Shown: one piece after another, positions 1 to 3,000 of the stretch
Layout: the number at the start of each line of letters is the position of its first letter
How positions within the stretch are numbered: position 1 is the first letter of the stretch
Assembly: GCA_007375595.1 (NCBI GenBank)
Contig: VMEP01000001.1
Span: 89,274 to 153,273, forward strand
DNA length: 64,000 nt
Origin: Parcubacteria group bacterium LiPW_30
GTDB taxonomy: Bacteria; Patescibacteriota; Minisyncoccia; Phycocordibacterales; VMEP01
Direction: 5' to 3'
Made by a program: the position numbers and the translations under genes
Notes under the pieces: generated by a model
Database searches by the model: none
What the model was told of the DNA's origin: nothing
Seen by the model: only the letters and a program-made list of their open reading frames with translations

Positions 1-3000
1 ACTATAGCTTTTCCCTTAAATTAAGAGTTGCTGACGTTTAGTCTCTACGGGCCACCAACGATAATGTCGGAGTTCCCTCGGTATCATCCACTAGTTGTTA
101 ACCAGTTAGGACTCCACCGATATAAGTCAGCTTGTCATTTTATATTTCTATAAAATGCCGCCGTGATTCGATTGATTTCTCTAAGCCGACGTTTCCAGTC
201 GGCTCCCCGACTATAACGTCGGGGTCATATTTCAAAAACGAAAACTTTTGATGTCTTATACCTTGGATTCAAACGAAGGAAAGTTAAAAGTTTGTAAAGT
301 TTGTAAAGTTAAAAGTAAATGCAATTTGTATTCACTTTAAAAACTTTGGACTTTTAACTTTTTAACTCCCCTACGGTTTGAACCCAGCTCACGTAACTTT
401 TTAATTGGCGAACAGCCAAACCCTTGGTAGCTTCTCCACCACCAGGATAAGTTGAGCCGACATCGAGGTGCCGAACTGCGCCGTCGATTTGAACTCTTAG
501 GCGCAACTAGCCTGTTATCCCCAGAGTAGCTTTTATCCGTTAATCTTCGACCGCGTCTAAAGCGAATCGTCGGTTCACTATGCTCCGCTTTCGCGCCTGC
601 TCGACATGTCCGTCTTGCAGTTAAGCTCTCTTATGCCATTGCACTATCGGCACGGTTTCCATTCGCGCCTAGAGAACCTTAATAGGCTCCTCCGTTACTT
701 TTTAGGAGGATACCGCCCCAGTAAAACTACCCACCAGATACTGTCCCTCAACGTTTTTGCCGTGGAGGTTAGTTCGTGCCTCGAAAAAGAACGGTATTTC
801 ACTGACGACTCCATCTCACCCGAAAGCGAAACTTCAAAGTCTCCCGTCTATTCTACGCAGTTGCAAAACAAGAACAATACCAAGCTATAGTAAAGCTTCT
901 GGGGTCTTTTCGTCTAACTGCAGGTAACCGGCATCTTCACCGGTACTGTATTTTCACCGAGCTACTCCCCGAGACAGTTCTCCAGTCATTACACCATTCG
1001 TGCGCGTCGGAACTTACCCGACAAGGAATTTCGCTCTTCTATTCCTCAAAGAAGGACTCTTTCTTAACCCCTAAAATTTTTGCAAGCAAAAATTCGGGCG
1101 ATCAATTTATAAAAATTGATTTAGCCACTTTTAGTTGGGTCCGTGACGTTGGTCTCTTGTTGATCACGTTGGACTATTCATGCATTACGGCATGAAAGGT
1201 AGCTCTAAAATGTAATGATTATTTTTTTTAAGTTGTTTAACTTTTTCTACAACAGTCCCAGTCCTGCTGAAACTTTCGTAAGAAAGTTTCAGCACCTTAG
1301 GACCGTTATAGTTACGGCCGACATTCACGAGGGCTTATATCAGCCAGCACCTAGCACTTTATTTTCTATTTCTAAAAAACAAAGTGCTAGGCACCACCGA
1401 TATTTGACCTTCTCGCATTGGTCAGGTGTCACCCCCTATACATACTTTTGCAAGTTCGCAGGGAGCTGTGTTTTTGTTAAACAGTTGCCAGAGAAACTTT
1501 CGCTGCGGCCTCTATTGCTAGAGGCAAGCCTTATCCCGAAGTTACGGCTGCTTTTTTGCCGAGTTCCTTGGGGAGCACTCACTCGTTCGCCTTGGTCTTC
1601 TCGACCTAACTACCTGTGTCGGATTACGGTACGGTTCCCCTTTTGTTATGCTTAGAGAATTTTCTTGGAAGCTTGCTTTGTCTCATTCATCACACCCGTA
1701 GGTATAACATTTTCGCTTCACTTGGATTCCTCATTAAAGAGAGGGTACCGGATTTTCCTGGAACCCATCCTTATGACACGAACACACATCCAATCGCATG
1801 CGAGACATACTAAACTCCGTCCTCCCATCGCACAAAAGAGAAGTCATGGAATATTAACCATGTGTCCATCGGATACGGCTTTCGCCATCTCCTTAGGCCC
1901 GACTAACCCTTCGCTGATTATCATCGCGAAGGAAACCTTGGTTTTTCGGCGTGCGGGGATCTCACCCGCATTGCGGTTACTTGTGCCAACATTCTTACTT
2001 CCACACGCTCCAGTATGGGTTACCCCTTTACCTTCACAGCCGAGTGGAATACTCTCCTACCGCTTGCGCACAACATGAGCAAGTCAAAATAAAAAGCAAA
2101 AAACAAAAACATTGCTGAATTTATCTCAGAGCTTTTAAATTTTAAACTTGCTCATGCTGCGCACAAGCCCTCAGTTTCGGTATCATGCTTAGCCCCGATT
2201 ATCTGCGGCGCAAGATCTCTCGATGAGTGAGCTGTTACGCTTTCTTTCAATGGTGGCTGCTTCTAAGCCAACATCCTCATTGTCTATGAAATCTCACATC
2301 CTTACTTGCACTTAGCATGAATTTTGGGACCTTAACTGGAGATCTGGGCTCTTTCCCTCTTGACCGATGGAGCTTCGCCCCCATGGTCTTACTGCCACGC
2401 TCTTACCTTCCGGCATTCGGAGTTTGATAGGAGCAACGAGATTTCTCCCTATTTGCTCCTTCCAGTGCTCTACCTCCGGAAGAAACACGTGACGCTATGC
2501 CTAAACATATTTCGGAGAGAACCAGCTATTACCAGGTTCGATTAGCTTTTCACTCCAACCCACAAGTCATCCGATGGCGTTGAACGACCAACCGGTTCGG
2601 GCCTCCATCTACCTTTCGGTAAACTTCACCCTGCTCATGGGTAGCTCACCTGGCTTCGGGTCTTATGTGTACTACGTCACCCGAAGGTGACATCGCTCTA
2701 TTAAAACTCGGTTTCCCTAAAGCTCCACCGCTTTACGGCTTAGCTCGCAGCACACATAAACTCGTTGGCTCATTCTTCAATAGGCACGCAGTCGAGGATG
2801 CATCGCGCAAAGCACGACGCAAGTTAAAAGTAGAAAGTTCGTAAAGTCGCAAAGTAAACACAATCGAATTTACTTTATTACTTTTTACTTTATAAACTTT
2901 AAACTTGCATCACACACTGTGTGATGCACCCTCTTCTACTCATTGTAAACATATGGTTTCAGGTCTATTTCACTGCCCTCACCGGGCTACTTTTCACCTT

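Follow-up and report, generated by a model that had tools for sequence, protein, structure and literature searches.

A 23S rRNA intron of a Parcubacteria bacterium that probably descends from group I introns by loss of the P4-P5-P6 domain

The 23S rRNA gene of Parcubacteria group bacterium LiPW_30 is interrupted by a 258-nt insert at L1931, which is the site between U1931 and A1932 of E. coli 23S rRNA. This insert is probably an intron that derives from group I introns and that has lost the entire P4-P5-P6 domain. The gene lies in a 64,000-nt stretch of contig VMEP01000001.1 (positions 89,274 to 153,273), which we call the window and whose coordinates are used throughout. By comparing the insert with related sequences, we show that it is homologous to group I introns, that the deletion is exact, that helices of the core are retained, and that selection on the structure has continued. 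We infer that the RNA is excised and that the exons are ligated. More tentatively (with a probability of roughly 0.35), the insert may be a natural self-splicing group I ribozyme without P4-P6, in which a new 5' domain would clamp about 13 nt of the exon, a GNRA loop would dock P2 on P8, and the G·U pair at the splice site would have relaxed to A-U.

L1931 is a documented site of bacterial group I introns, including those of Simkania, Thermotoga, and Synechococcus (PMC1995217), and it is a hotspot in the 23S genes of the Candidate Phyla Radiation (CPR), where it is site “23IS7” (PMC11270868). Insertions in CPR rRNA genes, including inserts at 1931 that lack an open reading frame (ORF), are thus already known: surveys classed introns by their match to an Rfam model, and ORF-less inserts that did not match were left as “uncharacterized” (PMC11270868).

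The 23S gene occupies positions 273–3552 of the minus strand and is full-length (2041 bits to LSU_rRNA_bacteria from Rfam). Several insertions make it about 355 nt longer than the model. The insert at L1931 corresponds to 1036–1293, so the RNA sense runs from 1293 to 1036. In the Rfam alignment of 1000–1330, model positions 1921–1993 are broken by about 260 nt, with flanks ...CGGUCCUAAGGU and AGCGAAAUUCC...; the insert itself begins with GCUGAAAC and ends with AAUAGAAG. In a syntenic relative (L065/L066, with the gene order rplJ-rplL-203aa-MscS-23S), CCTAAGGT|AGCGAAATTCC is continuous. Because the sequence of this relative is uninterrupted, the boundaries are exact for the lineage of the window. 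The ligated exons would read CCUAAGGU|AGCGAAAUU. An earlier, sequence-only reading of the window had described an ORF-less insertion with these ends, placed after U1931, with an upstream exon that ends in U, a final G, and a perfect 12-bp hairpin at the 5' end, and all of these features proved to be real. The last nucleotide of the 5' exon is U and the last nucleotide of the insert is G (the omega-G of group I introns), and the hairpin spans intron nt 1–28 (-16.1 kcal/mol). Among the sense-strand ORFs that lie wholly within the insert, the longest is 21 aa, and none encodes a LAGLIDADG, GIY-YIG, or HNH endonuclease.

The same reading had called the insert a minimal group I intron and had suggested a search with Intron_gpI (RF00028). 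In the 331 nt from 1000 to 1330, this model has no match to the insert even at E ≤ 10, and its gathering score of 50 bits is not reached. By the standard that the reading had set for itself, this result, taken on the insert alone, would have counted against a group I intron. The evidence for descent from group I introns comes instead from relatives of the insert.

To find relatives, we scanned metagenomes for the pattern exon / 225–285 nt / exon at L1931 and fetched at least 120 inserts, so ORF-less inserts of this length are common at the site. Most of them are canonical: they begin with ...GCUGCCUUAGUAAAAU YUGGCUAUAUGCUGGAA, their guide GCCUUAG pairs with CUAAGGU (with U·G at the splice site), and P3 and P4 come next. 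At least 20 loci, which comprise at least 17 distinct sequences including the window, form the family of the window insert. This family includes 14 short forms that lack P4-P6 and three long forms (L092, which is identical to L163; L103; and L116). Read from the 5' end, family members open with a hairpin that varies, followed by AGGACUGGGACUGUU and by a linker rich in A. GCUACCU and a hairpin closed by a GUAA loop come next, and then UAGUCC, a short hairpin whose 15-nt loop is AACAAGAGACCAAC, and another hairpin that varies. GAUGAAGAUAGAGUCC, a hairpin of 4 bp, and G as the last nucleotide complete the sequence. A profile built from the 13 other short forms matches the window exactly at 1036–1293 (E = 5e-31) and nowhere else in the 64 kb. 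The short-form profile also finds the 5' domain of long forms (E = 1.3e-7 for L103 and E = 3.7e-4 for L092), and its 3' core has weak matches to the long forms and to many canonical introns.

The long forms share with the window insert the 5' hairpin, AGGACUGGGACUGUU, the position of the guide, P2 with its GNRA loop, a1-b1, P3, P8, the S element, and P9 (these elements are located below). They differ in that they keep P4-P6, have a P7 of 5–6 bp, have a G·U wobble at the splice site, and pass the Rfam threshold. Where the window insert has a P3 loop of 15 nt, the three long forms carry 78–79 nt. Their P3 loop holds UAUAUGCUGG...CAGCAGG, and the extra block, of about 95 nt, reads UAUAUGCUGGAA...AAUCAGCAGGGAAGUCC...GGAC...CAGAGACUAAAC. 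All three exceed the gathering score of Intron_gpI. For example, L163 scores 65.9 bits (E = 9.5e-17), with the extra block aligned as P4, P5, P6, and the R element and with its flanks aligned as P3, P8, the S element, and P9. For comparison, a canonical control (L095) scores 68.2 bits. L108, which is a short form that is close to the window insert, has an on-target but sub-threshold match (18.6 bits, E = 0.01), in which P3, P8, GGAUGAAGAUAGAGUCC, and P9 are in register and 89 consecutive model positions (P4-P6 through J6/7) are replaced by 8 nt. The P4 motif is present in 96 of 96 other L1931 introns and in all three long forms but in none of the 14 short forms, which lack the P4-P5-P6 domain along with J3/4, J4/5, and J6/7. 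Because P4-P6 is common to all other group I introns and the 5' domain is specific to this family, the most natural reading is that the short forms arose by deletion. The “minimal group I intron” is therefore partly right: L1931 holds an intron-type element that is homologous to group I introns, but not a complete P1-P9 structure, as P4-P5-P6 is gone and U-A has replaced U·G at the splice site.

Across 400 nt of flanking 23S sequence, which is highly conserved, the hosts of short forms are 87–91% identical to the window and the hosts of long forms are 78–82% identical. The closest syntenic relative (92% flank identity) has no insert. This distribution is compatible with vertical inheritance, and some loss, within one CPR clade; it also allows for transfer.

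The elements of the window insert and its exons are as follows, in the 5' to 3' order of the RNA.

1299–1307, minus strand: 5' exon A1918–U1926 (AACGGUCCU, the 3' strand of helix 69), the proposed partner of intron nt 35–43.
1294–1297, minus strand: 5' exon AGGU, ending at U1931, which is the exon strand of P1 and complements ACCU of the guide; the junction is taken from L065.
1266–1293, minus strand: H0, the perfect 12-bp hairpin that starts at intron nt 1 (z = -7.4; 6 of 6 tested pairs covary in the family).
1260–1264, minus strand: a1, GGACU (intron nt 30–34), which pairs with b1, AGUCC (95% of cells paired).
1251–1259, minus strand: a2, the nonamer GGGACUGUU (intron nt 35–43), a proposed second exon-binding site that is invariant or nearly so in the 17 sequences.
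1204–1250, minus strand: A-rich linker, 10–74 nt long and variable in sequence across the family, for which no family-wide consensus fold was found.
1197–1203, minus strand: internal guide GCUACCU (intron nt 91–97), with GCU/AGC as P10 and ACCU/AGGU as P1; its A opposes the splice-site U.
1177–1196, minus strand: P2, a hairpin with a GUAA (GNRA) tetraloop (8 of 8 pairs covary, n = 17; the loop is GUAA in 15 of 17).
1171–1175, minus strand: b1, AGUCC (intron nt 119–123), the 3' strand of a1-b1 by family pairing and part of GAAUAGUCC.
1163–1168, minus strand: 5' strand of P3, CGUGAU (6 of 6 P3 pairs covary with n = 17, and 5 do so within the short forms; aligned by Rfam in L108 and L163).
1148–1162, minus strand: 15-nt P3 loop, in which the R-element remnant AGAGACC is the 5' strand of P7 and P4-P6 is missing.
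1142–1147, minus strand: 3' strand of P3, GUCACG, supported by covariation.
1066–1141, minus strand: P8, with a 5-bp base, GACCC/GGGUU (4 of 5 pairs covary; 100% paired in short forms), and a two-hairpin extension shared with L182 (fold z = -2.8).
1054–1065, minus strand: S element AAGAAAGAGUCC, comprising J8/7 and the 3' strand of P7, which in relatives aligns with AAGAUAUAGUC of the group I model from Rfam.
1037–1053, minus strand: P9, hairpin UUCU...AGAA with a conserved AGGAAU loop (4 of 4 pairs covary; 100% paired in short forms).
1036, minus strand: terminal G (omega-G position), invariant in 14 of 14 short forms.
1033–1035, minus strand: 3' exon AGC (A1932–C1934), the P10 partner of GCU in the guide, by complementarity.

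One assignment of the sequence-only reading had to be replaced. It had taken GAAUAGUCC (intron nt 115–123) for the 3' strand of P7/P3; family alignment and pairing show that this motif contains b1 and pairs with GGACU at nt 30–34, and the actual J8/7 and P7 3' element is AAGAAAGAGUCC at nt 229–240. Several other assignments were considered and dropped. A manual search near the 5' end of the insert found no canonical guide (GCCUU-type), the 5' hairpin is not an extension of P1 since the adjoining bases do not prolong the helix, an archaeal bulge-helix-bulge does not fit the junctions, and a circularly permuted group I core is unnecessary given the family alignment. A weak Rfam match to queA (25.5 bits, versus a gathering score of 52.6) overlaps P2 and b1, and we consider it to be due to chance.

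To quantify covariation, we counted pairs in anchored, fixed-length blocks from each sequence (L116 was re-extracted and corrected by hand before counting). For H0, P9, the guide, the S element, and the 5' block, the choice was made from position and not from pairing. Across the 17 sequences, the six helices H0, a1-b1, P2, P3, P8, and P9 (34 pairs) were 93.9% paired, and 30 of the 34 pairs had changes on both sides, although the counts for P2, P3, and P8 are biased upward because their blocks were placed by best pairing. None of 500 shuffles equaled these values, and slid controls gave 35–43%. Restricted to the 14 short forms, the count gave 94.5% of cells paired and compensatory changes at 26 of the 34 pairs (again, 0 of 500 shuffles), which indicates that the helices were maintained by compensatory change after the deletion. 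For example, in a1-b1, a C-G pair becomes U-A in L116 and a G-C pair becomes U-A in L144, and position 30 is something other than G only if position 123 is A (three of four such sequences, versus none of the other 13).

A P3/P7 pseudoknot with P8 between, plus J8/7, is present in the family. P7 covaries in the long forms and in L178 (GACUA/UAGUC, UACCA/UGGUA, and GGCCAU/AUGGUC). In the other short forms, P7 is reduced to G-C, (bulge), G-C, A-U, C-G, (bulge), C-G, and its assignment is less secure than those of P3 and P8. P7 pair 72–98 (in block alignment A2) is never unpaired: 13 sequences have C-G there and four have A-U, and the switch from A-U to C-G accompanies the deletion. The strand pattern G-N-G-(N)-A-C-C is retained in all of the short forms. 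In the base of P8 (1137–1141 with 1066–1070), the two innermost pairs are almost invariant as CC:GG; the only family member with a GAAA loop in P2 (L144; intron nt 106–109, or 1185–1188 in the window) has CU:AG there. This is a hint that the tetraloop L2 contacts the P8 helix.

The family also shows how the exons might be recognized. The guide GCUACCU is a perfect complement of the ligated exons AGGU|AGC (-12.6 kcal/mol), and it is homologous by position to GCUGCCUUAG of the canonical L1931 introns. Three variants of the guide occur, and two of them (GCUAUCU and GCUACUU) hold the pairing through G·U. The nonamer GGGACUGUU is a 9-bp complement of exon A1918–U1926 (-12.2 kcal/mol), and this pairing would explain the constancy of G41–U43; because the exon partner never varies, the pairing is proposed from complementarity and not from covariation. 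The nonamer also complements the S element (in 95% of cells, which is not above shuffles) and part of b1, so that its partner, be it the exon, the S element, or b1, is not settled. If both exon pairings form, then a1-b1, nonamer/exon, P1, and P2 would make up a four-way junction that has hardly any nucleotides left as linkers. Finally, the nucleotide that opposes the splice-site U is G in all 96 other distinct L1931 inserts and in all three long forms, and it is A in all 14 short forms, giving a U-A pair. The presence of the P4 motif splits the sequences identically. In group I ribozymes, J4/5, which is part of P4-P6, reads the wobble pair at the splice site. If this receptor is lost with P4-P6, relaxation to a Watson-Crick pair is expected.

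These features suggest how splicing could proceed. Between them, the nonamer and the short P1 would grip about 13 nt of the 5' exon. The P3-P7-P8-P9 core would bind guanosine in P7 and perform the two transesterifications, and P10 would position the 3' exon for ligation, which would restore the junction between helices 69 and 70. The intron must be removed because it splits this junction at the subunit interface. The family-specific 5' domain, which lies between the splice site and the guide, has three parts: the stable hairpin, the GGACU/AGUCC helix around the guide and P2, and the invariant nonamer. This domain may stand in for P4-P6 and compensate for the loss. We would give RNA-only splicing by the P3-P9 half, aided by the 5' domain, somewhat less than an even chance. 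The P3-P9 domain of the Tetrahymena intron reportedly retains activity without P4-P6 (Ikawa, Shiraishi, and Inoue, 2000, Nat Struct Biol 7:1032, a paper in the reference list of PMC13011429).

A number of observations weigh against this explanation of the insert or against RNA-only catalysis, along with the upward bias in the counts for P2, P3, and P8 and the failure of Intron_gpI to match the window insert itself. P1 alone is weak (-4.1 kcal/mol, versus -8.8 for the canonical guide), and P7 in the short forms is only 4–5 bp with bulges (-2.9 kcal/mol), with an extra bulged nucleotide in four family members. A U-A pair at the splice site is atypical for group I introns and weakens catalysis in model ribozymes. 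The S element offers another partner for the 5' GGACU repeat (paired in 95% of cells), which implies a competing alternative fold. All of the short forms may derive from one deletion event, and the association between the wobble pair and P4-P6 could itself be one event, in which case it is consistent with the model but is not independent proof. Also, we found no family member with an endonuclease when we used the sequence of I-ShaI (from Fig. S7 of PMC11270868) to look for homologues and fetched three contigs (L196–L198).

Much of this would be expected of a degenerate intron of group I origin that depends on a helper, with a protein (from the host or encoded by an intron) or another RNA removing it. 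We take this possibility seriously, while holding it at clearly less than even odds. Half of the catalytic core is gone; P7 and P1 are weak; U-A replaces U·G; and group I introns of lichen rDNA that are shortened by about 100 nt fail to self-splice in vitro and yet are cleanly removed in vivo (PMC8527467). Structural selection on the short forms fits folding for a cofactor equally well. On the other hand, there is no candidate maturase, since the insert has no ORF and the 23S gene contains neither a LAGLIDADG gene nor a second group I intron, and CPR genomes are highly reduced. Nor does the window seem to encode a P4-P6-like RNA that could act in trans: a profile of 50 P4-P6 segments found nothing in the 64 kb (E > 7). 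Furthermore, the most conserved parts of the family are J8/7, the G-N-G-A-C-C strand, the terminal G, and the P10/P1 guide, as expected if the RNA still does the chemistry.

It is improbable that the insert is an intervening sequence that RNase III or another nuclease cuts out without ligation, leaving a fragmented 23S rRNA as is seen at helices 25 and 45. The insert does open with a perfect 12-bp hairpin, there are several other AT-rich hairpin insertions of that type in the 23S gene of the window, and CPR 23S genes are known to carry such elements (PMC11270868). But the ends of the insert are not paired into a long RNase III stem, as minimum free energy and per-element folds give only local helices; a conserved guide that is complementary to both exon ends makes sense only for ligation; the insert shares its ancestry with true group I introns; and the site is not the tip of a helix but the single-stranded junction of helices 69 and 70 at the subunit interface. 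Even less credible is an expansion segment, with 258 nt retained in the mature ribosome. We found nothing specific in its favor, and it would have to be accommodated between helices 69 and 70, in the region of an intersubunit bridge. The closest syntenic relative does without the insert, the conserved features (the guide, the terminal G, and the S element) are those of an intron, and, according to the summary in PMC11270868, Brown et al. (2015) found CPR rRNA insertions to be missing from transcripts.

Among known systems, the window insert resembles the canonical bacterial and organellar L1931 introns, with which it shares the site after U1931, a homologous guide, P3, the R element, P8, P9, and the terminal G; the S element is GAAGAUAUAGUCC in the canonical introns and AAGAAAGAGUCC in the window insert. 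The canonical introns have a full P4-P6, a 7-bp P1 with U·G, no P2, and often a LAGLIDADG ORF, while the window insert lacks P4-P6, has U-A in a P1 of 4–5 bp, and carries a P2 that ends in a GNRA loop and a 5' domain of about 90 nt between the splice site and the guide. Intervening sequences that are processed by RNase III (at helices 25 and 45) are also short, ORF-less, and found in bacterial 23S rRNA, but they sit at helix tips, their ends form one long stem, and there is no religation; the window insert has a multi-helix group I core and a guide that spans the exons.

The nearest precedents for the loss of P4-P6 are an engineered deletion in the Tetrahymena intron and the introns of lichens. 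As in the core that we propose for the window family, catalysis in the Tetrahymena deletion is left to the P3-P9 half. In this construct, which reportedly needs high Mg2+ or polyamine, peripheral elements are reported to help make up for the loss. It is a laboratory construct, whereas the window family is a natural one, with putative activity, that is maintained by selection. The degenerate introns in the nuclear rDNA of lichen fungi resemble the window insert in being shortened (by about 100 nt), borne by rRNA, and folded like group I introns, and they are removed in vivo; they differ in being eukaryotic and nuclear, in not self-splicing in vitro, and in that their losses are not a clean deletion of P4-P6 (PMC8527467). 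The window element is bacterial, and its deletion is exactly the P4-P6 block. We found no report of natural group I introns without P4-P6 in the literature that we searched, of which our coverage was incomplete.

Our results show that at least one class of the “uncharacterized” L1931 inserts is a truncated group I intron. As this class is missed by Rfam, counts of group I introns in the CPR phylum that rely on the model are underestimates. To our knowledge, every group I core has been taken to include P4-P6 as one of its halves, which serves as the receptor for the splice-site wobble and as the scaffold of the active site. If the family does work without it, then it would be a natural test of ideas that rest on engineered deletion mutants, and it would provide a compact ribozyme scaffold (about 230 nt) that holds its substrate differently. 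For the host organisms, the annotation of rRNA, phylogeny based on 23S, and the design of quantitative PCR need to allow for the insert.

Other kinds of introns and inserts also occur at or near L1931. The three contigs with I-ShaI-type endonucleases (L196–L198) contain canonical introns with P4-P6, do not match the family profile, and were rejected as relatives. One of these introns (L196, with a LAGLIDADG ORF at 1501–2022 and a canonical core that contains P4-P6) interrupts ...AACUG|...|UCUAAGGU, which is not at 1931 but a few nucleotides upstream, so neighboring sites in helix 69 and its 3' flank are occupied by two different intron lineages. A third type of L1931 insert is GC-rich (AGACGCCCGGG...CUGCCCC...AGAUAUGGUCCGAGCC) and is distinct from both the canonical and the window families; its members are L076, L078, L090, L099, L100, L125, L148, L150, and L158. 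A scan of viral contigs for the signature motif gave two matches (L194 and L195), and L194 has no rRNA exon context.

The syntenic relative L065, in which the 23S gene is followed by a tRNA and then by 5S, has features of its own. Its 23S gene is 3704 nt, and farther 3', at 14717–14750, the short-form profile matches it weakly through the S-element portion (E = 0.006), so there may be another intron there. The span of this gene (11462–15165) also includes two tRNA matches, at 12747–12820 and 12860–12933 (65.6 and 35.6 bits), which suggests either that tRNA genes lie within an insertion in the 23S gene or that the gene is split.

Within the 23S gene of the window, there are at least five further AT-rich hairpin insertions (2062–2168, 1350–1391, about 2815–2935, about 3041–3089, and about 285–355). 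They include inverted-repeat arms of 28 nt and 19 nt and have the words GTAAAG and TTAAAAG in common; one is about 100 nt long after position 583 of the Rfam LSU model, and another is 49 nt after position 282. By their sequence, these look like intervening sequences of the RNase III type.

As for the surroundings of the gene, 23S is not linked to a 16S gene in the window. Upstream of it is the block rplJ-rplL-203aa-MscS-like, whose synteny is seen in six related contigs (within L062–L072). The recA and ftsK genes of the window are ordinary. Judged by the proteins encoded nearby, the organism belongs to Patescibacteria/CPR and is of the Paceibacteria-Parcubacteria type. On the minus strand, at 10368–13772, there is an ORF of 1134 aa with no NCBIfam match; its relatives are found at 61 loci in Patescibacteria genomes with 33–92% identity, in metagenome-assembled genomes labelled as Yonath-, Nomura-, Taylor-, and Kaiserbacteria and in other Patescibacteria.

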